Shown in pieces: positions 651 through 48,228 of a stretch of DNA of 49,493 nucleotides. This stretch comes from a virus. Both the position numbers and the translations under genes were made by a program. The stretch lies in IMG/VR virus record IMGVR_UViG_3300035102_000435; one strand, given 5' to 3'. Each line of letters starts with the position of its first letter. Position 1 is the stretch's first letter. The notes beneath the pieces are model-generated. The model had not been told where the DNA came from. It made no database searches and saw only the letters and a list, made by a program, of their open reading frames with translations.

Positions 651-1086
651 TGAAGTTTTCCCTAATTGGAAAGATGCTAATCAGGAATTAGAAAAATTAA
701 CAGAAGCAACATTTATTTATCCGGCCTTTTCCAAACCATCTGGCCAGATAGCAATTAACTTATTTTTTGTAGATGAAAAAGCTCTTGATGTAAAAATACC
801 TCAGGGGCAAAAGAAAAAATTCGAGAACATACTTGTAGCTTTAACTCAGAAAGTGATTCAAAAAGTCGGACTTAATGTAATAGGTATGGCCTATAGAAAT
901 CAGGAGTTAACAGGTAGTGTCAGAGAAATGATGGCCCGGGATGCAATTAGTAGATTCAAAAAATACTCTGAAGATCATGATTTGAAAGATTTTTTAGGCA
1001 GGAGACTTAGAAAAAGGTTAGGGCTCCCGGTTGAAGATGATGCAGAATACACTATCAGATTAGCCTGGGAGGATGAGGAAAAATGA
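634..1086 (+). CDS. Hypothetical protein
   Basis: 150-aa ORF in a co-directional early gene array, overlapping its neighbours by a few nt. Confidence 0.45.
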   Translation: MIIMSNEVFPNWKDANQELEKLTEATFIYPAFSKPSGQIAINLFFVDEKALDVKIPQGQKKKFENILVALTQKVIQKVGLNVIGMAYRNQELTGSVREMMARDAISRFKKYSEDHDLKDFLGRRLRKRLGLPVEDDAEYTIRLAWEDEEK

Positions 1087-1316
1087 AACCAATTATAGTA
1101 AATGGAAATATTGATACAGAAACCAAAGATGATATGGCCGACCTACTCAGAGACTTTAAGAATGACAACAAGGGCAAAAGAATTAAAATCGCAGGACCAT
1201 TTATTGAAACCGCACTAAGTGTTGCAAATTATGAGAATGTTGAAATTGAATTAAGTGAAAACTACAAAGAAATCAGATTGAATATTACTGATAAAGATGC
1301 CGAGGTCTCAGCTTAA
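1083..1316 (+). CDS. Hypothetical protein
   Basis: 77-aa ORF with stop-start overlap to the upstream gene. Confidence 0.4.
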   Translation: MKPIIVNGNIDTETKDDMADLLRDFKNDNKGKRIKIAGPFIETALSVANYENVEIELSENYKEIRLNITDKDAEVSA

Positions 1317-1728
1317 GGAGTTGGTAAAAGTGCCAGTTGTTAATACAAATGTAAAAGAAATAGGTTATGCTGCATTAGCTCTGGCCATAATTGAAGGATA
1401 TACACCAGAAGGAGCTCTGCAGGTAGTAGAAACAGGAGAAGAGCCAGTGACTAAGTTCAATGGAGACAATGATATTTTAGACATGATCATTTTAAAATTT
1501 ACTGAGGATATGACCTATAAAGAAATTGGTGAAGTTTATAATATCAGCGCAGATAATGCTTATAACAAGTTCAGAAGGTTAGCTGCTAAGAGAAAAACTG
1601 AAGACATGGTAAAACTTTATGATGCCGGACTTAATTTTAATCAGATAGCAAAAGTATTTAGGATGTCCCGGCAGGGAATCTGTTACAGATATAACAAAGC
1701 CAGGGGTGGAAACAATGAAGAGTCATGA
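1297..1728 (+). CDS. Hypothetical protein with C-terminal HTH-like segments
   Basis: 143-aa ORF; the C-terminal half has two helix-turn-helix-like stretches (MTYKEIGEVYNIS, FNQIAKVFRMSRQGI). Confidence 0.4.
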   Translation: MPRSQLKELVKVPVVNTNVKEIGYAALALAIIEGYTPEGALQVVETGEEPVTKFNGDNDILDMIILKFTEDMTYKEIGEVYNISADNAYNKFRRLAAKRKTEDMVKLYDAGLNFNQIAKVFRMSRQGICYRYNKARGGNNEES

Positions 1729-1894
1729 GGTTATTTTCAAGAAAGGCGGCCGGGTTAGAAAAGAAGTGATCAAAGCAAGAAACCGGTCAGCTGCAGTCGA
1801 AAAAATCAAAAAGAAACATAGGACCACTCATATTTTAAAAGTCAGAAAGCCAAAAGTAACTTTTGATGAGATATTAAATAAGTTGTTAGGGTGA
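1706..1894 (+). CDS. Hypothetical small basic protein
   Basis: 62-aa Lys/Arg-rich ORF. Confidence 0.35.
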   Translation: METMKSHEVIFKKGGRVRKEVIKARNRSAAVEKIKKKHRTTHILKVRKPKVTFDEILNKLLG

Positions 1895-2148
1895 TCAGGG
1901 TGAGCAAGAAAATTAAAGTAGGTGATACAGTTCAAAGAAAATATGCTTTCGGAACTGGAGATAAGATAATCGAAGGAGTAGTGCTGGAGAAAGATATTAA
2001 TAAGGTATCTGGAGAGAATTGGTTAATAATAGCGGTTAAAGGAAACTTGCAATATAAAATTCTTTCACCGGAGAAAAGATGCAAGAAAATAGATAAGAAA
2101 TATAAGCTGCATGAAAATGGGAAAATGAAACTTTTTGAGGAGGTTTAA
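1891..2148 (+). CDS. Hypothetical protein
   Basis: 85-aa ORF. Confidence 0.4.
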   Translation: MIRVSKKIKVGDTVQRKYAFGTGDKIIEGVVLEKDINKVSGENWLIIAVKGNLQYKILSPEKRCKKIDKKYKLHENGKMKLFEEV

Positions 2149-2150
2149 GG

Positions 2151-2312
2151 ATGAGCGACTATGTTTGGCTGCAGATTATAAAACATGCACTTCAACATTA
2201 TGTCCAAAGAGAAGGAGCAAGCGAAGAGGATTTAAAACAGGAACGTAAAGTAATGAGATATTACGAGGATAGAGTTGATAGCTTTAAGGCAAGACATAAA
2301 ATAGGGGGTTAA
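2151..2312 (+). CDS. Hypothetical small protein
   Basis: 53-aa ORF translated by hand; ATG preceded by GAGGAGG. Confidence 0.3.
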   Translation: MSDYVWLQIIKHALQHYVQREGASEEDLKQERKVMRYYEDRVDSFKARHKIGG

Positions 2313-3748: not shown

Positions 3749-4084
3749 GTGGAAGATAAACTTAAAGGACCCTGGGAGTTTATAGAGTATGAAAATTCAA
3801 TGTTTACAATTTTAGAAGTTAAAGACAAAAACAATAATAAGATGATCGCAAATTTTGTTGCTAATGATGAAGATTATCAATATAAGAAAAGGCTGGCCCT
3901 GGCTATTTCTCAAATACCTGATTTGTTAAAGTTATTTGAGACCATCAAAATAGAAGTTAAGCTAAAAGAACAGAAAGAAAATAACTCTGATGATCAGAAC
4001 ATAATGATTAATTATTTGATTAAAGAGAACTCAGAGGAGCTGGCCCGGATTATTCAAGAAATAGAAGTGGATCTAAATGGATAG
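3749..4084 (+). CDS. Hypothetical protein
   Basis: 111-aa ORF; GTG start directly after the upstream stop. Confidence 0.45.
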   Translation: MEDKLKGPWEFIEYENSMFTILEVKDKNNNKMIANFVANDEDYQYKKRLALAISQIPDLLKLFETIKIEVKLKEQKENNSDDQNIMINYLIKENSEELARIIQEIEVDLNG

Positions 4085-4158: not shown

Positions 4159-4599
4159 ATGAATTTAGGAAATATATTATTTGCAATTGGTGGAGTAGTT
4201 TTCGGAACCATAGTTACAGCTATAAAATTGCATAAAGAAAATTATGAGCAGCAGAAAATGATCAATAAATTAAATGAAAAATTAGTTTTTGAAAAAACCT
4301 CAAAGAAACTTTTTATGAAAATGTATGAAGAACAAGTGAGAAAAAACGTAAATGATAAATACGCTAGAGACTGCGACCCACCTGAGGAAGAATTCAAAAA
4401 GATTGAGTTTGACAACGAACCAATATTTCCTGGACTGGGAAGGAATTATTTTGTACCTGGTGGACGAAATAAAAATTATTGCGGTATGAGAAAGCCTTTT
4501 GAGTGGACAAAAACTTATTATAACCCGTGTTACTTGCCATATTCAGCCAGAAAAGAATTAGAAAATAATAAAGAGGTGAAAAACAATGATGAGATATAG
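4159..4599 (+). CDS. Hypothetical membrane-anchored protein
   Basis: 146-aa ORF with a hydrophobic N-terminal helix; RBS GGGAGG upstream. Confidence 0.45.
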   Translation: MNLGNILFAIGGVVFGTIVTAIKLHKENYEQQKMINKLNEKLVFEKTSKKLFMKMYEEQVRKNVNDKYARDCDPPEEEFKKIEFDNEPIFPGLGRNYFVPGGRNKNYCGMRKPFEWTKTYYNPCYLPYSARKELENNKEVKNNDEI

Positions 4600-5089
4600 A
4601 ACTGATTGCGGAATGGAATTTAACTCGACAGAGCATACATGCAAAAAGAATGTTAATTTAGAAAGAAAATTAATCGAAGGTAACCGGCCCAAAAATATAA
4701 AAGTTGAATTCGGCATGAATGAAAAATGCAAAGAATGTGCAGCAGTTAAAGAAAAAATTGATAAGCTGTTGAATACTGAAGATGGAACAACTTTCAAAAT
4801 TAAAGTTAAGTACTGTGAAGCTAGATCAATAACCCCTGAAGAAAGATACTGGCTGCTGTTGGATAGTTTGAGAGAAACTATTTCGGTATCAGTTAATGAT
4901 TATGAAACCAGAGAAGGTTCATTCGAGCGTTTGGACGAATTGCACAGGATTAATAATAAACTCTTGAAAGCAGCAAAGTTGTCAAAAGATTTACTTTTAA
5001 AATTAGAAGCTAATCCAGATGTTTGCGGGATAATGGATACAGTTGAGTATTTAGGGGGAGCAATCAGAGATGCGGAAGGTGAAAAATAA
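4586..5089 (+). CDS. Hypothetical protein (Cys-rich N-terminus)
   Basis: 167-aa ORF. Confidence 0.45.
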   Translation: MMRYRTDCGMEFNSTEHTCKKNVNLERKLIEGNRPKNIKVEFGMNEKCKECAAVKEKIDKLLNTEDGTTFKIKVKYCEARSITPEERYWLLLDSLRETISVSVNDYETREGSFERLDELHRINNKLLKAAKLSKDLLLKLEANPDVCGIMDTVEYLGGAIRDAEGEK

Positions 5090-6754: not shown

Positions 6755-6991
6755 ATGAAAATGAGAACTAAAGTTGTGGATATAAAAGCAATGGTTAGGC
6801 ATTTAAACAGTGGATGGCTTAATGATACCGATCAAGAACTTTTTGATTTGCTAATAACCTGGGCTAGTAAAGGGTATAGAAAAGTAAATATAGATGAAAT
6901 AGCAGACGTTCTAGGTTGGCATAAAAACAAAGTAAAATATAGATTAAATAAATTAAGAGATAGAGGTGTATTAACATGCTCAACAGAATAG
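6755..6991 (+). CDS. Hypothetical protein (possible winged-helix DNA-binding)
   Basis: 78-aa ORF immediately upstream of ssb. Confidence 0.4.
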   Translation: MKMRTKVVDIKAMVRHLNSGWLNDTDQELFDLLITWASKGYRKVNIDEIADVLGWHKNKVKYRLNKLRDRGVLTCSTE

Positions 6992-7497
6992 TACTTATCG
7001 GCCGGTTGACACGAGATCCAGAACTTAGATACACCAGTAACGGAACACCGGTTTGTAACTTCACACTGGCCGTAGAAAGAAATTATACCAATCGAAATGG
7101 TGATCGTGATGTTGATTTTATCAGTATTGTCACCTGGAGGGGTTTGGCTGAAAACTGCGCCCGTCATCTTGGAAAAGGTAGACTCGTGGGAGTGGATGGC
7201 CAGCTGCATATTAGAAAAAGCGAAAATAACAATAGAACTTATATTAATCCTGAGGTTAATGCAGATAATGTCCGATTTTTGGACTTTGCAAACAACAATA
7301 ATCAGAGAAATAATTCACAAAATAATAACCGGCAGCAGAATTCTAAAAATAATAGTCAGAAAAGCAAAAAGCAACAGCCACAGAATAATCAAAATAATCA
7401 GAGTCAGCAACAATCTCAAAACCAGCAGCAAAATTATAATCAAAATCAAGGTGGAAACGGAAATTTTGACCCCGATGACTTCGATGTTCCCTTTTAG
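6976..7497 (+). CDS. ssb: Single-stranded DNA-binding protein with Q/N-rich linker
   Basis: N-terminal OB-fold sequence typical of bacterial and phage SSB (LIGRLTRDPELRYT...); acidic C-terminal tip DDFDVPF; long Q/N-rich linker. Confidence 0.85.
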   Translation: MLNRIVLIGRLTRDPELRYTSNGTPVCNFTLAVERNYTNRNGDRDVDFISIVTWRGLAENCARHLGKGRLVGVDGQLHIRKSENNNRTYINPEVNADNVRFLDFANNNNQRNNSQNNNRQQNSKNNSQKSKKQQPQNNQNNQSQQQSQNQQQNYNQNQGGNGNFDPDDFDVPF

Positions 7498-7535: not shown

Positions 7536-8045
7536 ATGGGATATATAAGCAGAGAAGATCAGAAAATAGCAGAAGTATTAAGTCATTTTCAATTATATTT
7601 AAATGACAAAATTGATAAGTACAAAGAAGTTGATGCAGTAGAAAAGTCACCTAAGTTTATGCGCTCTATTAAGATGGCCCGGACCTATGCCGGCAAAGTA
7701 AAAGATATGCTTATTGAAGATGCAGCCAAAGAGCAAAAAGAAAATATTATTCAGAAAGTCAAGGAGACAAAACTTTCTTTAGATTATACCAGGGTGGCCA
7801 AAAAGAAAAAGAGAAAGATGAGGAAAGAGGACGATGTCACTGCAGTAGAGACTGATGATCTTTATGACATCATTGACAAAACTGTAAAAGTTCATTGTCT
7901 CGAATGCATTAAATCAAAAGATGAGATTGATAAATGCAAATTAAGAAAGCATTTATTAAAATATGACATTCCAGTAATACATGATGATCCAGAGCATAGC
8001 AGTTGCCCTTATAAAGTACTGCCGGACATGGTGCAAAATGAATGA
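7536..8045 (+). CDS. Hypothetical protein
   Basis: 169-aa ORF. Confidence 0.45.
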   Translation: MGYISREDQKIAEVLSHFQLYLNDKIDKYKEVDAVEKSPKFMRSIKMARTYAGKVKDMLIEDAAKEQKENIIQKVKETKLSLDYTRVAKKKKRKMRKEDDVTAVETDDLYDIIDKTVKVHCLECIKSKDEIDKCKLRKHLLKYDIPVIHDDPEHSSCPYKVLPDMVQNE

Positions 8046-8304
8046 TTACTATATTTGCGATATTGAAGGCTGCGGGGAACAGATCAGGAATGGCCGGTTT
8101 TGTCACTATCATAGCTCAATAACCGACCGGCCATGCGCTTGGTATTACCATAATGATTTGGGTACAGCTGCAGTGGAATGGTGCGGGAAGAAAAACAAAA
8201 GATTTATTGAAGTTAGCTGCAAAGGATGCGAGGATCACATAAAACCAGAGAACGGAATTGAAATCATTGAGAAGTTGACCGGACTTAATGGAGGTGGAAA
8301 ATGA
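8038..8304 (+). CDS. Hypothetical Cys/His-rich (zinc-binding) protein
   Basis: ORF in track from 7981; in-frame ATG at 8038; multiple Cys and His clusters. Confidence 0.4.
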   Translation: MNDYYICDIEGCGEQIRNGRFCHYHSSITDRPCAWYYHNDLGTAAVEWCGKKNKRFIEVSCKGCEDHIKPENGIEIIEKLTGLNGGGK

Positions 8305-9069: not shown

Positions 9070-9639
9070 ATGATTTTATCAGATCAAGAAATTATGAGAG
9101 CTCATACAGAACACAATATAATAAGTGATTTTAACCCGGACCAGGTGGAGCCGGCATCATACGACCTGAGGTTAGCAGACAAGATATTGCTGGAAAGAAA
9201 TTATTCAAGACCAATAGGAATGAATGAAGAGGTTGAATATATTCCGACATCAATCAATGACCGGCCACTTAATCCACAAGAATTTGTTTTAGGCAGCACA
9301 GAGGAATACATCTCATTGCCGGACAATCTGGCTGCATTTGTTACCGGCAAGTCTACAATCGGTAGAAAAGCAATAGAAGTTCATCAGACAGCTGCATGGA
9401 TTGATCCGGGGTTTCAGGGCAACATCACTTTAGAGATTATTAATAATTCTTCTAACAAAAGAAAACTTAAGGCCGGAGAGTTAATTGCTCAGATAGTCTT
9501 TTTTAAAGTGTCCGGCACAGTATTGGAACCTTACGATGGTAAATATCAAAATTCAGATGGTGTAATTGGCAGCTTGATAAATCAAAAAACTGAAATTAAA
9601 CCGCTCTTTATCGGTGGCCCGGGCCAGAAAGGAAATTAA
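9070..9639 (+). CDS. dcd: dCTP deaminase (dUTPase-fold family)
   Basis: 189 aa; motifs GKSTIGR and HQTAAWIDPGFQGNITLE match the dCTP deaminase family and align with E. coli Dcd over the full length, from memory. Confidence 0.75.
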   Translation: MILSDQEIMRAHTEHNIISDFNPDQVEPASYDLRLADKILLERNYSRPIGMNEEVEYIPTSINDRPLNPQEFVLGSTEEYISLPDNLAAFVTGKSTIGRKAIEVHQTAAWIDPGFQGNITLEIINNSSNKRKLKAGELIAQIVFFKVSGTVLEPYDGKYQNSDGVIGSLINQKTEIKPLFIGGPGQKGN

Positions 9640-9959: not shown

Positions 9960-10262
9960 ATGATGAAAAACATTGATAAACACGAACTATTTGTAGAAGC
10001 AGAAATAATGAGAAGGAATGATTCAGACTTAGTTTTATTTGTAAAAACACCAAAGAATGAAGAGATGATCATTGTACCTAATGAAGATATTCAAGAAAAA
10101 ATTGAATACATTGATAAAGTATATGATTTCAATTTAGATCACAGAGGAGCAAAGGGGGTTTTTATAATCGGGATAACTAATTTGAAAGAGTGGATCGAGG
10201 TGGTGACTGAAAATGGTTTTAAAGAAATCGGAATTAAAGCCTTATACTCGGATAAAGAGTGA
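9960..10262 (+). CDS. Hypothetical protein
   Basis: 100-aa ORF with AGGAGG upstream. Confidence 0.45.
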   Translation: MMKNIDKHELFVEAEIMRRNDSDLVLFVKTPKNEEMIIVPNEDIQEKIEYIDKVYDFNLDHRGAKGVFIIGITNLKEWIEVVTENGFKEIGIKALYSDKE

Positions 10263-10854
10263 ATTTAACTCAATAGAATTGCCAGAAGGATTTCATAAAG
10301 AATGGTTAGAAACAAAGCAATCTTTTAGAGATACGGTTATCAATGCCACAAAAGTACCTGCCAAATATTTATATATAAATGAGGAGGTGGAAGAATTGAC
10401 CGGGCCAGCACTAAAGGACGAAAAGATAATTTACAAAGATCAAGAAATGAACTATTATCATTTTATAGAAATGCTGATATCTAAATCATATAAATTAAAT
10501 GCAGCTATCTCTGCAGATAAAACTGGAATTGATCTAAGAGTAGTGGATTTAGAAATTTTAGGTCAGATAATATTAGATACTAATCGTTCAAATGAATTAC
10601 TTAAATTATCACATAAAAAGTTATATAATTTCATGGTTGAATTCTATTTTAAATTCAATTATTTTGATGAATTAAAAAGATATCAAAATAGAGATATTTA
10701 TCTCGGTAGAATTGAGATAGAGAATGATTTTAAAAAAATGATAAATAAATTTGAAACTGATCATGGTATGGATCTAAAGAAAGTTCTAATGGGCGCACTG
10801 GGCGTACCCTGGCATAAATATAAATATGAATTGTTCAAAAGAATAAAAACCTAG
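10213..10854 (+). CDS. Hypothetical protein (start uncertain)
   Basis: 213-aa ORF overlapping the upstream gene in another frame; the true start is probably internal. Confidence 0.4.
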   Translation: MVLKKSELKPYTRIKSEFNSIELPEGFHKEWLETKQSFRDTVINATKVPAKYLYINEEVEELTGPALKDEKIIYKDQEMNYYHFIEMLISKSYKLNAAISADKTGIDLRVVDLEILGQIILDTNRSNELLKLSHKKLYNFMVEFYFKFNYFDELKRYQNRDIYLGRIEIENDFKKMINKFETDHGMDLKKVLMGALGVPWHKYKYELFKRIKT

Positions 10855-10912
10855 ATCAAGACCGGCCGGGGGAAGTTCAAGAGCGATGGCCCGGACTATC
10901 GGGAGGTGAAAA

Positions 10913-11266
10913 ATGAATAAAGTATATTTCTTTTACAATGAAGAGGGGTATGGAAAATATGTAGCACACGAGTCTTTCAAAGAAGCTAAAGAAATAGCAT
11001 TGTTAAGCCCAGTTTTTGATATGCTTGAAAATCCATTCGTAGATATAAGAGGAAAATTAGTTAAAAGATATGATTATAGGGATGAAAAAGAATATATAGT
11101 TAAAACAAATACAGAAGGAATGTTAAGTACTCAAGAAATTGTAGATTTAGGGATAGCCTGGTGGCAATGTTCAGAATGCGGAACTGATGATTTGGAAATA
11201 GTTGATAGTGGCGAAAATTACAACTGTTTATCTTGCGGACATTCTGATGAAGTTCCTTATTATTAA
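10913..11266 (+). CDS. Hypothetical protein with C-terminal zinc ribbon
   Basis: 117-aa ORF; CSECG...CLSCGH motif. Confidence 0.45.
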   Translation: MNKVYFFYNEEGYGKYVAHESFKEAKEIALLSPVFDMLENPFVDIRGKLVKRYDYRDEKEYIVKTNTEGMLSTQEIVDLGIAWWQCSECGTDDLEIVDSGENYNCLSCGHSDEVPYY

Positions 11267-11319
11267 ATACAAGCTGGCCCGGGCATTTATTAAAAAAATT
11301 AAAATAGGAGGAAATTAAA

Positions 11320-11772
11320 ATGGCACAATATACTCAAGCCCCTGAGGTAGAAAATATTGCTAATAAATTAATAGAAAAATATCATAATCACCTACAAGGT
11401 TTTAAGATAATTTACTTATTTAGAGACAAAGCGATGAAATCAAAAGGAAAAGAGGTTTATGGTAAAGCATCAAAAGTACAATCTAAGTACCAGGCTATCA
11501 CTGGAGCAACATTTATCATTGAGATAGCTGAACCAGCATTTGCTTCAATGGACCACAAACATCAGGTAGCTTTAATAGATCATGAACTGATGCATTGCTT
11601 TATTGATGAAAATGATCAACCAACAATACTTTCTCATGACTTTGAAGGATTTAACAAGGAACTTAAGAGACATGGTTTCTGGGCTTCTGATCTGCAGATC
11701 ATGAAGAAGCAGCTGCAGCAGATGGAACTGCCTTTTAATGAAAAACCAGAGCTTAAGGTGGTGAGTGGGTAG
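11320..11772 (+). CDS. Putative HExxH metallopeptidase-like protein
   Basis: 150-aa ORF containing HELMH (HExxH zinc-binding motif); strong RBS GGAGG upstream. Confidence 0.5.
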   Translation: MAQYTQAPEVENIANKLIEKYHNHLQGFKIIYLFRDKAMKSKGKEVYGKASKVQSKYQAITGATFIIEIAEPAFASMDHKHQVALIDHELMHCFIDENDQPTILSHDFEGFNKELKRHGFWASDLQIMKKQLQQMELPFNEKPELKVVSG

Positions 11773-11987
11773 TGCCAATCAATCACAAGAATCTGGCCCG
11801 GGCCAGAGAAAAGAGCGGAAATACTAAAACATTTTTAGCAAAAAAATGCGGTGTAACAATAACTACCTATAGCAAGTGGGAAGATGGAGACACTGTCCCG
11901 GGAGTCGATAAAGCTAAGATACTTGCGGATATATATGAAACAACAGTTGACGTATTATTTTTCAGCAGAGTATTTAGACTAATTTGA
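11772..11987 (+). CDS. HTH (XRE-like) DNA-binding protein
   Basis: 71-aa ORF; HTH-like segment TFLAKKCGVTITTYSKWE; GTG start overlapping the upstream stop. Confidence 0.5.
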   Translation: MPINHKNLARAREKSGNTKTFLAKKCGVTITTYSKWEDGDTVPGVDKAKILADIYETTVDVLFFSRVFRLI

Positions 11988-11997: not shown

Positions 11998-12837
11998 TTG
12001 GATTTTAGATGCAGTTTAAGCAAATGGAGAACTAACAAAAGGTCGGCCAGGTTAACACTACTGGTCGGCCCCAAAGATGCACCAATGGATTTATATAACT
12101 TCGAAGACAAACCGCTCGATATTATTTTAGACAGCAAAGTTAAAATAAAAGGAGAAATCAAAAATATTGAGCAGCTGGTAAAAGGAAAAATTAAAATAGT
12201 GATTGTTACTGCTGAAGATTATAAAAAAGAAATTATTAGTGGTGGCCCGGGCCTTAAAAATGCTGAAAATATAAAAGTCACATTTTTAATTGATGCTGAT
12301 GAACAGGTTAAAAGAATGAACATGATCAGTGACCGGCAGAGAAGAAAAGCTTTTGCCACAATTGGAGATATTGCAGACAGTATTGGTTATGCCAAAAACG
12401 AGATGTATGAGAAGTTAAAAGAAAAATTCTCTGAGGTGACTGGTTATGGAGAAATAAGTCTTTCAGATTGTTCAAGGAAAACTGCAGAAGATTTTATTGA
12501 TTTCTGTATCAGAATTGGTTATGAATATGGTGTCGCCTGGGAAGAACATCCCAGAGAGAGAATGGACAATCTTTATAAGTGGCTGCGGTTATGCCTTGAT
12601 CAGAAAATTTGTGCTGTATCTGGCCGGCCGGGAAAAGAATATTTAATCGATAACTCCGGAGCTATAATTCATAGTCACCACACAGATGCAATAGGAATGG
12701 GACAAAACAGGCAAAAATTTGATGATAGTAAGCTTAAAAAAATATCTCTATCTGCGGAATATCATGTTGAAGCGCACAATATAGGCTGGGAATCTTTCAA
12801 AAATAAATATCATGTTGAGGGCATTATCTATCCGTAA
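11998..12837 (+). CDS. Hypothetical protein with C-terminal His/Cys-rich (HNH-like) region
   Basis: 279-aa ORF; C-terminal CAVSG...HSHHTDA...HVEAHN suggests a metal-binding nuclease motif. Weak call. Confidence 0.4.
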   Translation: MDFRCSLSKWRTNKRSARLTLLVGPKDAPMDLYNFEDKPLDIILDSKVKIKGEIKNIEQLVKGKIKIVIVTAEDYKKEIISGGPGLKNAENIKVTFLIDADEQVKRMNMISDRQRRKAFATIGDIADSIGYAKNEMYEKLKEKFSEVTGYGEISLSDCSRKTAEDFIDFCIRIGYEYGVAWEEHPRERMDNLYKWLRLCLDQKICAVSGRPGKEYLIDNSGAIIHSHHTDAIGMGQNRQKFDDSKLKKISLSAEYHVEAHNIGWESFKNKYHVEGIIYP

Positions 12838-12876
12838 CGGATTAGATGCTAGCCCGGTGATTGGAGGCTGATTTTT

Positions 12877-13290
12877 TTGGCTTGGAGAAATGTAAGCGAA
12901 AAACAAGCAAAAGATTTGATTAAGGAAAAGAGAAAAGGTGCCGGTGTTAATGTTTTAGAAGAGGAAGAACAGAAAAAGCTAGCTCAATATCTTGATTATA
13001 AATATATGGAAGGTGATTGGTGCCATGTGCCTAATGAAGGCGACCACAAAGTTCAGTATTATGTTAAACAAAAAACTTTAGGTGTTAAATCAGGCGTGCC
13101 GGATGCATTAATTTTCAAGCCGGTTGCCGGATATAATGGAATTGCTATTGAACTTAAGAGGTTGAAAGGTGGCCGGGTTAGCGAAAGCCAAAAGAGATGG
13201 CTTAAGAGGTTTAAAGAGAACGGTTGGGCTGTTAAGTTAGCAGAGGGAGCAGATGCTGCTATAGAATTTATTGAAGAACTGGAGGGATAA
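12877..13290 (+). CDS. VRR-NUC domain nuclease
   Basis: 137 aa; GVPDALIF...IELKRLKGGRVSESQKRWL resembles the PD-(D/E)XK VRR-NUC pattern, from memory. Confidence 0.6.
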   Translation: MAWRNVSEKQAKDLIKEKRKGAGVNVLEEEEQKKLAQYLDYKYMEGDWCHVPNEGDHKVQYYVKQKTLGVKSGVPDALIFKPVAGYNGIAIELKRLKGGRVSESQKRWLKRFKENGWAVKLAEGADAAIEFIEELEG

Positions 13291-14646: not shown

Positions 14647-14895
14647 ATGATCACTTCCAATAAACGATATAATATAATTACAAGATGCATGAAAGTATTA
14701 TTTATGATAATAAATGAAAGTGGTTTAAATAGAAATTTGATTGCCGGCCGGTTGGGGGTGAGCTCTAAAACGGTCAGTAGGTATATTAATATCTTAAGAG
14801 CAGCAGGGTTTGAAATAGTTTATAACTTTAAAAAGAAAGAATATGAAGTAATTAATTATCAAATGGTGGAGGGGTTGGGTGGAGATGTTAAGTGA
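14647..14895 (+). CDS. HTH DNA-binding protein
   Basis: 82-aa ORF; HTH-like RLGVSSKTVSRYINILR. Confidence 0.4.
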   Translation: MITSNKRYNIITRCMKVLFMIINESGLNRNLIAGRLGVSSKTVSRYINILRAAGFEIVYNFKKKEYEVINYQMVEGLGGDVK

Positions 14896-15139
14896 ATCTA
14901 AATTAATTTGTGAATACCAGGGCATCAAAAGACATATTCAAGTTCCAGTATTGTGTCCGAGGTGTAACAGAAGAACTTTTATTTTAGACAATCGAAAAGA
15001 AAAAGGTAAGTGTATAAGGTGTGGTAAAGAAATGACTGCTGATGAATTACTAGAAGTTGCAAAGGCTGATTACTTAGAAAAACACAGTGCTACTGACTAT
15101 CAAATTAGAAATAACAGAGGTGACTGCGGCAATGCCTAA
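14879..15139 (+). CDS. Hypothetical zinc-ribbon protein
   Basis: 86-aa ORF; CPRCN...CIRCG. Confidence 0.4.
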   Translation: MEMLSESKLICEYQGIKRHIQVPVLCPRCNRRTFILDNRKEKGKCIRCGKEMTADELLEVAKADYLEKHSATDYQIRNNRGDCGNA

Positions 15140-34607: not shown

Positions 34608-34925
34608 ATGAAAGGATTTCCTAAAAAATTAAAGACGAAAAAAGATTATGAAAATATCGTCGATGATTTCGGCTACACTCAAAAAGTAAAAGAAGCTTAT
34701 CAGGCATTGTTAGAAACTGATCAGCATTATGTATTTGATAAAGAACTGGCAACTGAGGATGAAAGGACTGGCCCGCTCCCTGATTATAAAGTAATGAAAG
34801 AAGATGAACAGGAAACCGAGACAGTCAGAATTGTTCAGTACAAATTAGTAGATAACCCTGACTCAAAGCTAAAAGAGTTAGGTTTTACAGAATTCGAAGT
34901 TCAAGAGGTGATTGACTTATGCTAA
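34608..34925 (+). CDS. Hypothetical protein (tail fibre region)
   Basis: 105-aa acidic ORF. Confidence 0.35.
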   Translation: MKGFPKKLKTKKDYENIVDDFGYTQKVKEAYQALLETDQHYVFDKELATEDERTGPLPDYKVMKEDEQETETVRIVQYKLVDNPDSKLKELGFTEFEVQEVIDLC

Positions 34926-35956: not shown

Positions 35957-36039
35957 TTCGTGATTTGATAATCTGTTTTTTTATTAAGGTGTGAATATTT
36001 ATCAAAAATCTAACAATACATCAAAAAGTATATGATCTA

Positions 36040-36336
36040 ATGGTTTGGTTTTTCCCGATCGTGGATAACTTTCCGAAGTATGAAAAATTTGTACTTTGCA
36101 CTCAAATAAAGAACTCTATATTAGATATTTCAAAAATCATTATTGAAGCAAATAAAACCAGAGGTAGTAAAGTGAGGTTTCTGCATCGGGTAGATGTCCG
36201 GCTTGAGCAATTAAGAATGCTAATCAGGTTTGCTCATGAAAGGCATTACTTAAACCATTCTAAATATGAAAATGTATCTAAAAAAGTTGATGAAATAGGA
36301 CGCATGCTTGGGGGTTGGATCAAGTCATGCGATTAA
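36040..36336 (+). CDS. avd: Accessory variability determinant (Avd-like four-helix-bundle protein)
   Basis: 98-aa ORF between VR and TR; the C-terminus (VDEIGRMLGGWIKS) resembles the Bordetella phage Avd C-terminus (EVGRILGSWIAR), from memory. Confidence 0.7.
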   Translation: MVWFFPIVDNFPKYEKFVLCTQIKNSILDISKIIIEANKTRGSKVRFLHRVDVRLEQLRMLIRFAHERHYLNHSKYENVSKKVDEIGRMLGGWIKSCD

Positions 36337-36358
36337 ATATTTGGGGTTAAGAGCGTTT

Positions 36359-36471
36359 TTTCCACGCCGGTGGCAATTGGAATGATGGTGTTCACTGTGG
36401 TGCTCGCGCGTTGAACCTGAACAACAAGCCTTGGAACGTGAACTCGAATATCGGGTCTCGTGGTGTCTGTG
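36359..36471 (+). repeat. DGR template repeat (TR)
   Basis: Non-coding copy of the VR; 22 adenines, many in AAC/AAT triplets in the VR-aligned frame, 11 of which differ in the VR. Confidence 0.85.
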
Positions 36472-36495
36472 CTCTTCATGCAAAAATCTTTCAGA

Positions 36496-36519
36496 CAGTA
36501 GTGGTTACGGCCACTACTG
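36496..36519 (+). other. Hairpin in the TR-RT spacer
   Basis: Perfect 9-bp inverted repeat CAGTAGTGG / CCACTACTG around a 6-nt loop, 25 nt downstream of the TR. Confidence 0.4.
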
Positions 36520-36888
36520 CAGTGTTTCTAGAAATGAGGAACAGGCTTTTAATCCCTGCTGAGATACTTTTTTAAAGTCAATCCAGCAAAAAATTTAGAT
36601 TGCTAGCCAGGCAGCAAGTATTGAAAAATAGAAAGTTGTCACAGTCAGCGACTGCCCGTTCTCATTTGAGCGGGCTTTTAATTTCCACCCATAAATAGAG
36701 AAAGTGGTGATAATATTCCAAAAAAATTTAAGAATCTATATCCAAAAATATACGATTTTGAGAACCTATACATTTCTTATGAAAATGCTAGAAAATCTAA
36801 ACGATATACTAACCAGGTCCTTAAATTTACTAATCAGTTAGAAAGCAATTTAATTAACATTCAAAATCAGCTCATCTGGAAAGAATAT

Positions 36889-37827
36889 TTGCCTGGCGAA
36901 TATCATCAGTTCTATGTCTATGAACCTAAGCAGCGGTTAGTTATGGCACTTCCTTTTGAGGATAGAGTGGTCCAGTGGGCTGTATATAGAAATTTAAATC
37001 CTATATTTGATAAAACTTTTTATGAACATAGCTGCGCCTGCCGGATTGGTAAAGGTACTCATTATGCAGCGGACCAGCTGCAGCACTGGATGAGAAAACT
37101 AGATAGAAGCCCAGGGGAAACTTATTATCTCAAAGCTGATGTTGCAAAATATTTTTACAGGATAGATCACAGAACTCTTTTCGAAATCATCAAAAGAAAG
37201 ATTAGCTGCAGAGATACTTTAGAGCTGATCTGGAAGATCATTAAAAAAGATGATGGTGAATTCGGAATACATCTCGGTGATCATTACTTTGAAAGAGATA
37301 AAATCAAAGGAATTGGAATCCCGATTGGTAACTTAACCAGTCAATTATTTGCTAATGTTTATCTCGACTTCATGGATAAATTTATAAAACATAATTTACG
37401 GGCTAAACACTACGTCAGATATATGGACGATTTTGTTATCCTGGGAAAATCAAAGAAAGAACTACATACAATCAGACAGGAGATAGAAATATTTCTTGCT
37501 GATTATTTAAAACTTGAACTTAACAACAAAACTACTGTTGATAATATCTGGAATGGAATAGATTTCTGCGGATATGTCACTTATCCACCATATAGAAAAT
37601 TGAGAAAAAGTACAAAAAGGAAACTCAAAAGACGGCTTAAATATCTTCAGAAAAAGTATTATAAAGAGGAGGTGGAGATCAATGAAATAAATGCCAGCGT
37701 TCAAAGTTATCTTGGAATATTAAAACATTGTGACAGCCATAATCTGACAATGTCGGTTATTGGCCAGTTAGAGGATGAAATACTTAATCAACTAGATTTA
37801 GAGGACGTTCGAGAACAAAGAAGTTGA
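36889..37827 (+). CDS. DGR reverse transcriptase (N-terminus likely extends upstream)
   Basis: YMDD catalytic motif (YVRYMDDFVILG) and the DGR-type IGNLTSQLFANVY motif; coordinates are from the first canonical start, but conserved N-terminal sequence continues in frame back to about 36700. Confidence 0.9.
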   Translation: MPGEYHQFYVYEPKQRLVMALPFEDRVVQWAVYRNLNPIFDKTFYEHSCACRIGKGTHYAADQLQHWMRKLDRSPGETYYLKADVAKYFYRIDHRTLFEIIKRKISCRDTLELIWKIIKKDDGEFGIHLGDHYFERDKIKGIGIPIGNLTSQLFANVYLDFMDKFIKHNLRAKHYVRYMDDFVILGKSKKELHTIRQEIEIFLADYLKLELNNKTTVDNIWNGIDFCGYVTYPPYRKLRKSTKRKLKRRLKYLQKKYYKEEVEINEINASVQSYLGILKHCDSHNLTMSVIGQLEDEILNQLDLEDVREQRS

Positions 37828-40652: not shown

Positions 40653-41342
40653 ATGGCTAGACAAATTTGTGTTTACGTTAGTGATTGGCAGTTTGAGAAA
40701 TTAAAAAAAGAAGATAACAAGTCAGAGGTTGCAAGAAAGGCATTTGATTTATATTATAAAAAGGAGGGAAAAGAAATGAAAATTATTGAAATTGTAGAAT
40801 TAACAAAAAGTGGTGTAAAAGTTAGCGATCAGGACAATCCAATGGCGGTTAGATATTTTAATGACAATGGAAATTTACCAGATGGAAATTTTGACGAAAA
40901 CCAAATAGCTGGCGAATGGGTGCATCTTGAAGGACAACACGCAAATTTTGAAATTTATGCTTATAGATCTATAGACAATAGTACACTCGTTCCAGCTGAT
41001 ATTTTCAAAGAAAAATTAATTAGTCAAATTGCAGGCGCCAGAATTACATTAACTAAAGCTGAATTAGAAGAAAAAGCAGAAATTAATGAAGTTTGGGAAG
41101 AAATAGCGACCGAAAGCATCCAGGCCACAAAAGAAAAAACTTTTTCAAAAGATGGTTGGAGAGATATCGAATTAACTGATGATTATCTATATCAGCTAGA
41201 ATTTGATGAGGGTGGCATAAGATATTATGAAGGTACAGAAGAAAGATATTTAGAGGAACCGGTCGGTGAAGAAGGATGGGATGAACCACAATGGTCTCCT
41301 AAAGAAATTAAAATGCTAATAGATGGGCTTGAAAATGAATAA
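40653..41342 (+). CDS. Hypothetical protein with N-terminal ribbon-helix-helix-like segment fused to an acidic domain
   Basis: 229-aa ORF; the N-terminal ~40 aa look CopG/Arc-like; an in-frame ATG at about 40775 with its own AAGGAGGG could give a separate product. Confidence 0.45.
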   Translation: MARQICVYVSDWQFEKLKKEDNKSEVARKAFDLYYKKEGKEMKIIEIVELTKSGVKVSDQDNPMAVRYFNDNGNLPDGNFDENQIAGEWVHLEGQHANFEIYAYRSIDNSTLVPADIFKEKLISQIAGARITLTKAELEEKAEINEVWEEIATESIQATKEKTFSKDGWRDIELTDDYLYQLEFDEGGIRYYEGTEERYLEEPVGEEGWDEPQWSPKEIKMLIDGLENE

Positions 41343-41916
41343 ATTAATTATACCTGGTCGTATTCTAGGAATATTCTGGACTACGGCCAGCTGGTCCTCT
41401 ACAGAAAAATCTATTCAAATAACTAATAAGGACTATGAAATTGTTAAAAAAGTGCAAAGTTATCTTTCTGAAATTAATTTTGAATATACTATATACCAAG
41501 GACCAACAGAAAATAAGCGCCCAGGTTATGAATATGATTATTACAGAATGAAAATATACAATAGTGATTTCATTGACCTGTTAAGAAATGAGTACAACTG
41601 GCGAGGGAGGAGAGAAAAAAAGAGATATTACCCTAATTTCGATTCTTATCAGCAGGTAGTTGAATTTTTGAGATATTATATTAATTCTCAGCACACTTCT
41701 GCTGAAATATCAGTTAATTGGGGCGACGGAAAGCATAAGCGATTAAAGGTATTTGTTAACAAAAATTTTGCAGATATTCTAAATGAAAGAATAAGCGATA
41801 TTGTAGGGGTTAATGAAAACAAAATATACAAACATTCTCAATCAGATGTATTAATGTATCTTTTTTATCAAAGCAAAAAAGATGTAGAATTAATATTAGA
41901 TTTTATAAATAAATAG
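41323..41916 (+). CDS. Hypothetical protein
   Basis: 197-aa ORF, Tyr/Arg-rich. Confidence 0.45.
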   Translation: MGLKMNKLIIPGRILGIFWTTASWSSTEKSIQITNKDYEIVKKVQSYLSEINFEYTIYQGPTENKRPGYEYDYYRMKIYNSDFIDLLRNEYNWRGRREKKRYYPNFDSYQQVVEFLRYYINSQHTSAEISVNWGDGKHKRLKVFVNKNFADILNERISDIVGVNENKIYKHSQSDVLMYLFYQSKKDVELILDFINK

Positions 41917-44205: not shown

Positions 44206-44877
44206 TTATAACTTATGCATAACTTCTATAGCTTTACCAATAATTCTAGCCTGATCATTTTTTATAATGATATTTTCATAATTAGGATTCTCAGGTTGCA
44301 AAACCCATGAACCGTTAGTTTTTATTACTCTTTTTAAAGTTGCTTCATCAGAATTAACCATTACTACTGCTATCTCATTATTTTCAACTGTACTCTGACG
44401 TCTGATCAAAACAAGATCCCCCTCGTTAATACCTGCATTTATCATACTGTCACCTTTGACTTTAAGAAAGAAATATTGACCATTTGAAACCCTATCAGCT
44501 GGTACTTTTTTGTAGAATAAAATATTTTGTTCAGCCAAAACTGGCTGCCCTGCAGAAATTGTTCCGATAACCGGAATAGATTCGACTTCTTTTTTTATGA
44601 TGTCATCATAATTATATTTAGATTTTGTTTCTTTTAACTCATTAACTTTTCCAGATATGTAACCCGCTTTAATCATCAGAATGCCATCCGCAATATTTAA
44701 AGCTTGCTCTAATTTTTTGATAATTTGTGGAGATGGAGGGTTTTTAGTTTTGCCATTTAATATTCTAGAAATGTAAGAGTGATCTATATCAGCCTGTCTT
44801 CCCAACTCTCTGATAGAACTTATTGCCGAATCATCAATTTCTTTTTGAAGAGTTTCTCTAAAATCTTTTATACTCAT
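44206..44877 (-). CDS. CI-like repressor (HTH plus S24 LexA-type peptidase domain)
   Basis: 223 aa; N-terminal HTH and C-terminal S24 motifs (GDSM...KRV); divergent from a Cro-like gene. Confidence 0.85.
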   Translation of the reverse strand: MSIKDFRETLQKEIDDSAISSIRELGRQADIDHSYISRILNGKTKNPPSPQIIKKLEQALNIADGILMIKAGYISGKVNELKETKSKYNYDDIIKKEVESIPVIGTISAGQPVLAEQNILFYKKVPADRVSNGQYFFLKVKGDSMINAGINEGDLVLIRRQSTVENNEIAVVMVNSDEATLKRVIKTNGSWVLQPENPNYENIIIKNDQARIIGKAIEVMHKL

Positions 44878-45029: not shown

Positions 45030-45272
45030 GTGGTGAAAGAAATTGTTTTAAATCGTGAACTTGTTGAAAAATATATGGAAGAAACAGATCGCTCGATACC
45101 AGAACTTGCTGATGAGATGGGAATTGATAGGACCTACCTTTATAAGATATTAAGGAAAGGCAGAAAACCAGGCAGAAAATTCATTGAAGGAGCCGTAAGA
45201 GTTCTTCCTTATAGTTATGAAAATATTTTTTTAACTAAAGTGGTGCATAAAAACAACAAAAGTGGTGATTAA
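45030..45272 (+). CDS. Cro-like HTH regulator
   Basis: 80-aa ORF divergent from the repressor; HTH-like SIPELADEMGIDRTYLYKILR; RBS AAGGAGG. Confidence 0.5.
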   Translation: MVKEIVLNRELVEKYMEETDRSIPELADEMGIDRTYLYKILRKGRKPGRKFIEGAVRVLPYSYENIFLTKVVHKNNKSGD

Positions 45273-46612: not shown

Positions 46613-47186
46613 TGTTATTAGCTTAAATCAAAATGATATTCAAGAACTTAATGATGAAGAACTTGAAATGCTTCAGACTAAAGTAATGAATGCCAGGATT
46701 AATAAACTTGCTGCAAAAATTAATGAAGCTAATTTAGCCGCTAGAAAAGCTGAAAATAAAGCGAATGAAGCAAATAGAAAATTAGAGAAATTAGAAAAAG
46801 AGCAGGAAGATATAAAAGATATAGCAGTTAATTCAGCCAGAGTTAATGCCCCTAGATATGACTGGGTTAATCAAAGCACATTCGGAGAATTCTTAGAGCC
46901 TTCTATTGGTTCTAGAACTTTTGGAAAATTATTAAAAGTAGTTGGCCTGGCCAAAAGAAATTCCAGTCGCACAAGACCATATAGGAAATATGTTGGTAAA
47001 AATAAATATGCCAGGGTTAAAACTTTTGAAAAATATAATACTACTGATTGGCATTATATAAGGTGCCTTGATTTTATAGATGATTGGCTCGAAGAGCACG
47101 GATACTACAAAGATTTTTATTCCACCGAAGACGAAAAGCAAAGAAAAGAATATATTGACTGGTTATATGTTAAGTATGTCGATTAG
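46596..47186 (+). CDS. Hypothetical protein
   Basis: 196-aa ORF with TTG start; N-terminal coiled coil. Confidence 0.45.
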   Translation: MIVSNDVISLNQNDIQELNDEELEMLQTKVMNARINKLAAKINEANLAARKAENKANEANRKLEKLEKEQEDIKDIAVNSARVNAPRYDWVNQSTFGEFLEPSIGSRTFGKLLKVVGLAKRNSSRTRPYRKYVGKNKYARVKTFEKYNTTDWHYIRCLDFIDDWLEEHGYYKDFYSTEDEKQRKEYIDWLYVKYVD

Positions 47187-47189
47187 GAG

Positions 47190-47489
47190 TTGATTATTAT
47201 CGAAAACAATATTTTTCAATTAAAAAAGTCATTAGAAATGTTAATTGCTGCATTAAAAATTTCAGAAAGCGATGAAGATAAAGAAATTGTATTTAGAGCG
47301 CAGCAAAAATTAGGAATGAAAACTGGTTTAGGATACGCCAAAAGAAATTTTATAGATGAGGTAGCTGATCAGTTGGCTTTATCAATAATTACAACTTTAG
47401 AAAAACAGATTGCAGAAGTTAAATCTGATCTGGAAGCAAAATTAAATAAAAGAAATTTAAGAAAGGATGAAGTAAATGAAATTAACTAA
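47190..47489 (+). CDS. Hypothetical protein (start uncertain)
   Basis: 99-aa ORF. Confidence 0.4.
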   Translation: MIIIENNIFQLKKSLEMLIAALKISESDEDKEIVFRAQQKLGMKTGLGYAKRNFIDEVADQLALSIITTLEKQIAEVKSDLEAKLNKRNLRKDEVNEIN

Positions 47490-47733
47490 AAAAGAGAAAA
47501 CAGCCAGGTTATTAATTGATTTATTTGTTGATTTTAACGATGAAGCTGAGGTTATTTATTTTGTAGATCCAGTTGATGAATTAGTAATGTGTTCTACAGG
47601 GGAAGAAATAAAACTTATTTGTCGCATAAATGAGGTAGAGAGCGCAACCAGTACCGAAGATGATGTTTTATTCATTGAAGCGGACAAAACCTTTAAATTG
47701 ACTAAATCTGGACCTGTGGAGGTGCAAAAATGA
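47476..47733 (+). CDS. Hypothetical protein
   Basis: 85-aa ORF. Confidence 0.4.
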   Translation: MKLTKKEKTARLLIDLFVDFNDEAEVIYFVDPVDELVMCSTGEEIKLICRINEVESATSTEDDVLFIEADKTFKLTKSGPVEVQK

Positions 47734-47924
47734 AGATAGATATCAGTTTATCTGAGGAAATGACTATCAAAAGTGCTTTACAGATGGAGTTGGCCAACCT
47801 GAAATCAAGAAAATATAAGGATGAGTATGTAAAAAAAGAAATTAAGAAAATTGAATTGTTACTGCAGAAGTTAGATAAAGAAGATGAAAAAGAAGCTAAG
47901 AGAATAATGAGAGGTGAAGGTTAA
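47730..47924 (+). CDS. Hypothetical small protein
   Basis: 64-aa ORF. Confidence 0.35.
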   Translation: MKIDISLSEEMTIKSALQMELANLKSRKYKDEYVKKEIKKIELLLQKLDKEDEKEAKRIMRGEG

Positions 47925-48228
47925 GATGGGAACTATTAGAGAATGGCAGTTATTTATAATGGGTTTACTATTTGGATTACTTTTATTTAGATTACTACCA
48001 CCAACATTCGTTGAAATATATAAAGAATTGAAAGAATTGTTTATACTGCTGCTGGCCCGGATAATTATATTTTTTAAGCGAATCAGAAAATTTTGGGCTA
48101 TCTGGCGAAAGACTAAAGAAATCCCAGCTGATGGCACAGCTGAGATTCAAAAGAAAAAGCACTCTAAATACATTATAACAAATAGTTGCACTGATTTCCA
48201 TAGGCAAAACTTAGAGAGGTGGAGATAA
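47914..48228 (+). CDS. Hypothetical membrane protein
   Basis: 104-aa ORF with a hydrophobic N-terminal half. Confidence 0.35.
   Translation: MKVKMGTIREWQLFIMGLLFGLLLFRLLPPTFVEIYKELKELFILLLARIIIFFKRIRKFWAIWRKTKEIPADGTAEIQKKKHSKYIITNSCTDFHRQNLERWR

Follow-up and report, generated by a model that had tools for sequence, protein, structure and literature searches.

A strongly selected, phage-lineage-specific octamer with a Chi-like pattern in a temperate phage assigned to Halanaerobium

The Chi clusters of phages are the closest described counterpart of the motif considered here. In lambdoid phages without a Rec module Chi is the commonest octamer, with about one copy per 2 kb, half of them in the rightmost 22%, and it stands mostly in the orientation active for an enzyme entering from the right end (Zheng et al. 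2025, PMC12315714). The present study concerns the octamer TGGCCCGG in the IMG/VR record IMGVR_UViG_3300035102_000435 (the window, meaning the whole 49.5 kb stretch of DNA that was analysed), which is the genome, complete or nearly so, of a temperate tailed phage. The octamer is a real, strongly selected and phage-lineage-specific DNA motif, which belongs as a variant to the known class of dispersed oriented phage motifs and in its behaviour is closest to phage Chi clusters. It is common to three otherwise unrelated phage groups, designated A (the window's clade), B, and C.

Abundance, conservation and extent of the octamer

The window holds 21 strand-specific matches to TGGCCCGG at 18 places, 15 on the plus strand (positions 932, 4041, 7675, 9615, 10887, 11275, 11794, 12243, 18079, 19888, 24380, 29299, 32027, 32812, and 48053) and 6 on the minus strand (9619, 10400, 11798, 15809, 31164, and 32031). 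Dinucleotide shuffles give an expectation of 0.20 matches (largest 2) and an order-2 Markov model 0.27 on the plus and 0.18 on the minus strand; the enrichment is about 75-fold and TGGCCCGG is the top octamer of the window (z = 28). An earlier reading of this DNA, made from the letters only and designated below as the sequence-only reading, had listed the octamer sites on the plus strand and the reverse sites, all of which were found again, and had estimated that fewer than one site would occur by chance, which agrees with the 0.2–0.3 obtained from shuffles and Markov model against 18 places. Variants with one mismatch number 28 where about 6 are expected, so that the exact word (21) is nearly as common as all 24 one-off words combined, and therefore all eight positions matter.

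In open reading frames (ORFs) 7 copies read xTG-GCC-CGG ((L/M/V)-A-R) and 7 read T-GGC-CCG-G (G-P-x), while the copies at 10887 and 11275 are intergenic and that at 15809 lies in a 608-bp gap before terS. GCC-CGG writes 8 of the 51 A-R dipeptides and GGC-CCG 8 of the 28 G-P dipeptides, though these codons are rare. Synonymous-codon shuffles, in which proteins and codon usage were kept, resulted in means of 2.8 (plus strand, including the intergenic copies, which stayed unshuffled) and 0.4 (minus strand) versus the 15 and 6 observed. A peptide or codon artefact is thus ruled out by the two frames and the spacers, and the synonymous shuffle falls short of the count. The claim of selection on the DNA and not on the protein is upheld by the same facts together with the retention of the octamer in relatives, and the k-mer test proposed with it, against shuffled and Markov controls, gave a count far above expectation.

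The octamer is intact in 46 of 57 distinct diverged homologous contexts (81%) with flanks 71–97% identical, where flank identity predicts 24 intact copies of 57 and control octamers 25–45 bp away are kept in 36%. Extra copies occur in relatives where the window has near-copies, all on the plus strand: the decayed copy TAGCCCGG at 12850-12857, in the spacer between the HNHc_6 and VRR-NUC genes, is intact in L003 and L014 and also at this junction in groups B and C; the one-mismatch copy TTGCCCGG at 20253-20260 is intact in L015, and the one-mismatch copy TGGCCCAG at 23368-23375 is intact in L015 and L016 by means of a Q-to-R change. Other gains in relatives needed several, amino-acid-changing substitutions; copies in structural genes arise by substitution, without indels, and reverse-strand copies are both conserved and gained. 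The octamer is a positively selected site on phage DNA, of which the recognition is putative, and since the reverse copies are conserved and gained they argue for the recognition of DNA over that of sense RNA.

The exact 12-mer palindrome TGGCCCGGGCCA, reported in the sequence-only reading at 9615, 11794, and 32027, was confirmed by exact match at all three positions, and each of them consists of two overlapping octamers. The "near-complete" copies of the same reading stand only in part: at 932 and 18079 there is the octamer with one further base (3 mismatches to the 12-mer), and the copy placed at 31161 is actually CAGCCCGGGCCA at 31160-31171. In 8 octamer copies positions 9–12 of the palindrome are essentially random (3-4 mismatches), and every nnGCCCGGGCnn / GCCCGGGC core has the full TGG on at least one side; therefore the functional unit is the asymmetric octamer and not the 12-mer. 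The 8-bp palindrome GCCCGGGC is contained in six copies, and the logo of 40 non-homologous copies is [G/T][C/A]TGGCCCGG[G/A]C. The 12-mer palindromes are best understood as a pair of overlapping units that point in opposite directions, and such a palindrome may be the cheapest route to a reverse copy, as only four bases are added. The earlier suggestion of a dimeric binding protein is weakened accordingly.

Several other words were noted in the same counts. GGCC and CCGG are about threefold in excess and CTGCAG is also in excess; these are common to phage and host and unrelated to the octamer. The CTGCAG palindrome is about 2.5-fold over-represented (37 copies) and as frequent in host loci and in other Halanaerobium phages. 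Genome-wide in the window AGCTGCAG occurs 14 times on the plus and once on the minus strand, with about 1.6 expected, in two reading frames. A literature search for the motif found no paper containing TGGCCCGG.

Placement of the copies, shared genes and host

Six of the 18 places fall within 9.6-12.3 kb, which is 5.5% of the genome (p = 3e-4), and 8 of the 18 lie in the genome's rightmost 22%, left of the gap upstream of terS. The stretch from 32.8 to 48.0 kb with the tail fibre, diversity-generating retroelement (DGR), lysis, accessory, and immunity genes is motif-free (p = 0.001). In groups B and C every copy is found in the early region, ending about 2.5 kb (B) or about 5 kb (C) before terS, and the 10 kb or more that hold the terS, TerL, portal, and capsid genes are free of copies; copies in structural genes belong only to the window's clade and are conserved there. 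Most copies run with transcription: non-palindromic copies are distributed over plus and minus strands as 12:3 in the window and group A (p = 0.035), 7:2 in group B, and 5:4 in group C, with 24:9 in the pool of three groups (p = 0.014). At the level of pattern the likeness to Chi drawn in the sequence-only reading is supported by this strand bias of 12:3, whereas a host Chi is disfavoured by the low density of the octamer in Halanaerobium chromosomes, as described below.

Group B (e.g., L135, L155, and L157) can be aligned to the window over no more than 10–17% of its DNA, and its terminase, portal, and capsid are different ones; group C (L163) carries again another structural module. By protein comparison groups A, B, and C share only an SSB, a Cys/His-rich protein, an HNHc_6 protein, a RusA or VRR-NUC protein, and a zinc ribbon, all encoded on the plus strand of the window. 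The SSB gene (6976-7497) is the first of this sub-module. The next member is a 107-amino-acid Cys/His-rich protein (7981-8304), 59–72% identical in groups B and C and a candidate reader of the octamer, of which about 40% identical homologues are present in 4 of 15 motif-free loci; it has no family assignment, and its predicted structure is unusable (predicted local distance difference test score of 39). The prime candidate reader combines a NinB/Orf-like domain with a His-Me (HNH) nuclease (11998-12837; Pfam HNHc_6), is 56–66% identical across the groups, and was detected in 6 of 6 motif-rich loci but in none of the 15 motif-free ones (Fisher p = 2e-5); group C has it too. Proteins of the HNHc_6 type, in which a lambda Orf (NinB)-like DNA-binding domain is fused to a His-Me finger nuclease, are common beside ssb in staphylococcal phages (PMC5714182, PMC8093625). 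The next member is a VRR-NUC, Holliday-junction-resolvase-like protein (12877-13290); in some phages of group B it and RusA replace each other, with a motif-bearing junction on either side of the exchanged segment. The third candidate reader is an 86-amino-acid zinc ribbon (CPRC...CIRC; 14879-15139), 62% identical in group B, 32% identical in group C, and found in 0 of 15 motif-free loci; it has almost no homologues in the protein database and no informative family or structure.

Scans with alignments of the HNHc_6 protein and of the zinc ribbon led back to these phage groups and to no others, and among the matches listed in an IMG/VR scan for the 13-mer palindrome, which were mostly chance matches in GC-rich DNA, there was no AT-rich, motif-rich contig without the module. 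A general link between HNHc_6 proteins and such a motif was rejected, as Staphylococcus phage 80alpha and MT835973 carry HNHc_6 and no octamer above z of about 8 (28 here); only the HNHc_6 subfamily of Halanaerobium phages co-occurs with a motif.

The host is the salt-loving anaerobe Halanaerobium, to which the SSB points: its OB domain shows 94–97% protein identity to chromosomal SSBs of several Halanaerobium species, with a differing C-terminal tail. Near-identical phage proteins are binned in the metagenome-assembled genomes (MAGs) Halanaerobium sp. T82-1 and Candidatus Frackibacter sp. T328-2. The OB-domain match with a differing tail (6976-7497) also suggests a recent exchange with the host ssb gene. 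No integrated prophage with host flanks was found, the contigs with integrase and neighbour genes all being circular permutations, and a scan of genome contigs with the integrase gave only relatives of at most 46% identity.

In 73.7 kb of Halanaerobium chromosome 2 copies of TGGCCCGG were counted (about 1 per 37 kb), where the phage density would give 31. This sample comprises four rpsF-ssb-rpsR loci and is small and syntenic, with a guanine-plus-cytosine (GC) content of 0.33–0.36; the sources are H. congolense, a strain whose ENA study also yielded the phage contigs, H. saccharolyticum, and a Halanaerobium that is unclassified. The search of the host for the motif, which had been proposed as a check, thus indicates that it is not host-wide. 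Chi typically occurs at least once per 5–10 kb in the host chromosome, a density that the Halanaerobium sample does not reach. The 2 host copies and the 6 copies in motif-free phage loci are all on the coding/leading strand (8:0), about 5 of them being independent versus about 1–1.6 expected.

Several wider origins of the motif were considered and rejected. A host-wide motif, such as an uptake sequence, Chi amelioration, or a sequence like the FtsK-orienting polar sequences (KOPS), does not agree with host loci and 14 phage loci near background, and an enrichment in the Syntrophomonadaceae MAG L024 (GC 0.53) is ordinary CTG-GCC-CGG codon usage. Nor is the octamer a trait of all relatives, since phages with 52–73% TerL identity hold none. 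A host Chi candidate sought among skewed words in the host loci was uninterpretable because the loci are syntenic. Two further contigs deserve mention. In L061 (73% TerL identity, GC 0.43), which has no TGGCCCGG, a tight cluster of about 10 AAGTCCGCA / TGCGGACTT repeats at 4249-4660 resembles origin iterons or a regulatory array and is local only. The contig L119 (IMGVR_UViG_3300033747_000022, 203.6 kb), classed as viral and derived from the same sample as a group A contig, has many small ORFs, a Halanaerobium-type SSB outside the rpsF-ssb-rpsR context, and 3 octamer copies in 20 kb, and may be a jumbo phage or another element.

The window itself has a GC content of 34% and a marked purine excess on the plus strand. 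Its structural genes encode a GpA-type large terminase, a lambda-type portal and capsid, and a contractile P2-like tail; its other genes include the DGR, a holin, an amidase, a serine integrase, and an S24-type repressor on the minus strand, and a long early operon begins at about 45 kb, passes over the window ends, and continues to 15.6 kb. Circular permutations of this phage are found as contigs in many metagenomes, and no close relative was found among GenBank phages.

The individual copies, on the plus strand unless stated otherwise, are placed as follows. In the early operon the copy at 932-939 belongs to ORF 634-1086 (M-A-R) and is conserved in 4 of 4 diverged relatives, the copy at 4041-4048 belongs to ORF 3749-4084 (L-A-R), and that at 7675-7682 to ORF 7536-8045 (M-A-R), with a homologous copy in group C (L163:8559). 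The palindrome at 9615-9626 lies at the 3' end of an early-operon gene of the dCTP deaminase/dUTPase fold (9070-9639), whose last codons hold it, and the next ATG follows 12 nt on. A reverse copy (CCGGGCCA on the plus strand) is located at 10400-10407 in ORF 10213-10854. The intergenic copy at 10887-10894 stands between a stop codon and the Shine-Dalgarno (SD) sequence of the gene 10913-11266, with a homology breakpoint with relatives exactly here, and the intergenic copy at 11275-11282 stands between the stop at 11266 and the SD of the gene 11320-11772, with a homology breakpoint 6 bp off. The 12-mer at 11794 is part of a 16-bp perfect palindrome, TCTGGCCCGGGCCAGA (11792-11807), in the first codons of an HTH_3 gene (11772-11987), and the copy at 12243-12250 lies within the NinB/Orf-HNH gene (G-G-P-G). 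A further early copy, at 48053-48060, is in ORF 47914-48228.

Between early and structural genes a reverse copy at 15809-15816 (minus strand) lies in the non-coding gap before terS (15585-16191, 608 bp), which is probably the cos region, as presumed from gene order (terS, GpA-type terminase), or possibly an uncharacterised RNA. A 200-bp stretch of this gap (15790-15990) is GC-richer, and Rfam gave no match to it; within the gap lie the ends of two independent metagenome contigs, at 15663 and 15677, and contig ends are scattered elsewhere too. Further copies occupy the large terminase gene (18079-18086), the portal gene (19888-19895), ORF 23955-24506 (24380-24387), the tape-measure gene (29299-29306), ORF 30896-31450 (reverse copy at 31164-31171, minus strand), the gp25/W-like baseplate gene (12-mer palindrome at 32027-32038), and the baseplate J gene (32812-32819), after which the 15-kb motif-free stretch begins.

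In this motif-free stretch no copy was found in or near the variable repeat, the template repeat, or the reverse transcriptase of the DGR, and a link to the DGR was rejected. The DGR is complete (34919-37827) and comprises an mtd-like target gene (34919-35956) with the variable repeat at 35833-35951, a bAvd gene (36040-36336), a template repeat (36359-36477) that is 89% identical to the variable repeat, and the reverse transcriptase (36889-37827). Within the accessory region, which separates the lysis genes from the integrase, the ORF 41323-41916 has a weak LAGLIDADG_3 similarity and is possibly a free-standing homing endonuclease.

Candidate functions and readers

The account that we favour, if tentatively, is that the octamer would be a cis-acting, Chi-like hotspot for DNA-end processing or recombination-dependent replication. 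The window phage has no recognisable annealing protein, exonuclease, or RecBCD/AddAB inhibitor, and searches of Pfam, PHROGs, and PDB sequences detected no annealing protein, exonuclease, or Gam in it. Its SSB, its junction resolvase, and its NinB/Orf-like RecA-loading domain fused to an HNH nuclease could make it dependent on RecA-type recombination. Most copies are on the top strand, and their density is highest over the final few kb ahead of the presumed cos/terS end, so a helicase-nuclease or nickase starting from that end would soon meet a site, halt degradation, and pass the DNA to RecA. In two other Halanaerobium-type loci, both motif-free, a different equipment was observed: L107 (6179-7728) encodes a RecT-family annealing protein and then a metallo-beta-lactamase-fold nuclease a few kb before ssb (Pfam), and L112:5832-6545 is a near-identical nuclease ORF.

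For a Chi-like hotspot two kinds of reader may be considered. The first is a phage protein of the shared sub-module, with the Orf-HNH protein as the first suspect, which would make the octamer a private hotspot; the second is a Halanaerobium enzyme of the AddAB/RecBCD type, for which it would be the host Chi. The phage reader is slightly favoured because the host lacks a Chi-like density, the reverse copies are conserved, and the co-occurrence with the Orf-HNH sub-module is strict. In its most specific form, which is by itself rather doubtful, the Orf-HNH protein, alone or with a Cys-rich or zinc-ribbon partner, would read TGGCCCGG, nick or halt resection, and load RecA. In this way phage DNA, and not the host chromosome, would receive the benefit of recombination-dependent replication and of end protection, and hotspot and reader together might form a self-contained module that moves between otherwise unrelated Halanaerobium phages. 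The octamer is not assigned to host Chi on account of its density of about 1 per 37 kb in the host sample, its conserved reverse copies and palindromes, and the lack of orientation bias in group C.

Several facts weigh against a Chi-like hotspot. The reverse copies are far above chance and conserved, the palindromes are conserved as well, and group C has 5 forward and 4 reverse copies; conserved reverse copies and palindromes count against any strictly orientation-dependent element. The placement of cos, from which the position of the dense region is judged, follows from gene order only, and about half of the early genes have no assignable function, which leaves the absence of a Rec module unproven. 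For a host Chi the probability of finding 2 or fewer copies would be 0.02 if there were 1 per 10 kb in the host, and in the 162 kb of 14 further phage loci that encode Halanaerobium-type SSBs there are 6 copies, of which about 3 are independent. For the Orf-HNH protein as reader it is unfavourable that 80alpha and MT835973 are without a hyper-enriched octamer, that the motif cluster lies physically within the shared module, so that the co-occurrence may be linkage, and that the structure model shows no sequence-specific binding, with the HNH part poorly predicted.

A stoperator-like or start-associated regulatory site, at which a zinc-ribbon, Cys-rich, or helix-turn-helix (HTH) protein of the phage would bind the early-operon junctions and block or tune the downstream gene, is unlikely, although it would account for a part of the placement. 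In all three groups about half of the copies of the early region are located in the spacer between stop codon and SD, often with TGA directly followed by TGGCCCGG; these junction copies end 15–37 nt before the next start, upstream of the SD, and some of those in group C are reversed, as CCGGGCCAGCAGGAGG. The direction of most copies with transcription and the co-occurrence with small zinc-ribbon and Cys-rich proteins are also in its favour, as is the fact that the motif is lineage-specific and near-absent from the host, in which it resembles two motifs of mycobacteriophages, the 13-bp start-associated sequences (SAS) in Cluster K and the stoperators in Cluster A (PMC3203893, PMC6550527, PMC9283540). 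However, spacers are the cheapest place for any DNA motif, so that junction placement is unspecific, and 13 of the 18 window places are deep within ORFs (terminase, portal, tape measure, and baseplate among them) with no start downstream and yet are conserved and gained. A DNA-metabolic role fits the conserved copies in structural genes better than a gene-regulatory one. Besides, no copy falls in 32.8-48.0 kb with the cI/cro immunity region, which excludes the immunity repressor as the user, and no candidate binder has a recognisable sequence-specific DNA-binding fold. A promoter or terminator role was rejected separately, as consensus scans remained at background and the copies are too near the start codons for promoters.

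It is still less probable that the octamer is a passive or semi-mobile cassette boundary, that is, a conserved junction for early-gene exchange, the abundance of which would be a by-product of shuffling or of a GC-rich mobile patch. Exchange junctions of this sort are the promoter-early stem-loop (PeSL) elements in T4-type phages and the lambdoid boundary sequences. The swap between RusA and VRR-NUC in group B takes place between two motif-bearing junctions with homology switching at the 3' edge of the octamer, a 23-bp duplication in L157 (the 3' end of the HNHc_6 gene and the octamer) flanks an extra 79-amino-acid ORF, and of 30 breakpoints in the window's clade two are close to intergenic copies, at distances of 0 bp (10887) and 6 bp (11275). 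Overall, however, there is no excess of breakpoints around the copies (2 of 30 within 30 bp, p = 0.18), copies in structural genes appeared by substitution and away from module borders, and a word of eight bases is too short to bring about homologous exchange by itself. The exact octamer peaks sharply (21 exact to 28 one-mismatch copies, with about 1 to 30 by chance), which points instead to sequence-specific recognition. The swap itself can be followed in the comparison of L157:3997-4820 with L155:5790-6260, in which RusA is replaced by the 79-amino-acid ORF and VRR-NUC and a 15-nt remnant of the rusA start is left.

An RNA signal, with UGGCCCGG in sense transcripts serving as a processing site or as the site of a Com-like zinc ribbon, is highly improbable. 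The sense-strand bias, the placement before ribosome-binding sites, and the weak similarity of the 86-amino-acid zinc ribbon to gpCom (PHROG, E = 0.0065) would agree with it; against it, reverse copies are many-fold above expectation, conserved, and gained, the same junctions are reversed in group C, ten junction RNAs have neither a common structure nor a significant folding z-score, and there is no Rfam (or tRNA) match.

Equally improbable is a modification or restriction target, already raised in the sequence-only reading and now read as a site of a host or phage cytosine methyltransferase on part of GGCCCGG or a self mark, since despite a GC-rich, partly palindromic sequence with CCSGG, GGNCC, and CCGG sub-sites and six copies with GCCCGGGC, no methyltransferase, restriction, or base-modification gene was found in the whole genome and its relatives (Pfam, PHROGs, and precomputed annotations), the unit lacks symmetry, host DNA contains GGCC and CCGG just as often, and the site is enriched 75-fold and not avoided, as restriction targets in phages normally are.

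With a Chi-like hotspot the consequences depend on the reader. If a host enzyme reads the octamer, it would be the first Chi for Halanaerobiales, and the rule of "no Rec module, many Chi" would be extended from Proteobacteria to an anaerobic Firmicute-type host dominant in hydraulically fractured shale, with the puzzle of why the chromosome is so poor in copies. A phage protein as reader would mean a new kind of portable recombination hotspot that brings its reader along, and the widespread uncharacterised Orf-HNH (HNHc_6) proteins would gain a function. Either way, the 18 mapped sites and their natural gain and loss variants provide a handle on recombination-dependent replication in temperate phages, and the octamer is a practical marker for this module in metagenomes.

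Comparison with known dispersed motifs

Among the short dispersed sequences described so far, the uptake signal sequences and DNA uptake sequences (USS/DUS) of Pasteurellaceae and Neisseriaceae resemble the octamer, which is enriched 75-fold and found in several frames and in spacers. USS/DUS are host-wide, with about 1 copy per kb and both strands equal; here the host sample has 2 copies in 73.7 kb and the phage a strand ratio of 15:6. The nick motifs of T5-like phages and of Pseudomonas phage tf, which are short, asymmetric, strand-biased, and phage-specific with about 1 copy per 3 kb, are comparable as well, and an HNH-type nuclease would be a plausible enzyme. These motifs are presumably restricted to one strand, whereas 6 of the 21 octamers are on the other strand and nicking at the 3 palindromes would yield double-strand breaks.

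The SAS of Cluster K mycobacteriophages (PMC3203893) are, like the octamer, a short, conserved, and oriented repeat before many starts that is absent from the host; they differ in overlapping the ribosome-binding site and in being placed almost only at starts, while the octamer stands upstream of the SD and is also reversed and intragenic. The stoperators of Cluster A mycobacteriophages (L5, Bxb1; PMC9283540, PMC6550527) are similar in their many dispersed asymmetric sites, which are lineage-specific, mostly in one orientation, and often at gene boundaries. A stoperator, however, is identical to the operator of the early promoter, is bound by the immunity repressor, and measures 13 bp, whereas the octamer site measures 8–10 bp and most of its copies in the clade are in ORFs. 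In the immunity region of the window (repressor 44206-44877, cro-like gene 45030-45272, and the intergenic DNA) neither the octamer nor the palindrome is present.

The phages with Chi clusters (LLS, P. aeruginosa phage MD8, and P1; PMC12315714, Bobay et al. 2013 PMC3784561) differ in several respects. The motif of LLS is the Chi of its host, which has 1 copy per 4.6 kb compared with 1 per 37 kb in the Halanaerobium sample; the orientation in Chi-rich phages is 20:3 and 32:0 versus the weaker 24:9 here; and the conserved palindromic doublets and reverse copies, as well as the confinement to the early region in two of the three groups, are peculiar to the octamer. In the other respects the likeness is close: in these phages, as in the window, the motif is the top octamer with about 1 copy per 2-3 kb, mostly on the top strand, its copies turn over among relatives, and no annealing protein, exonuclease, or inhibitor is detected, the RecT-carrying sister phages of the window being motif-free.

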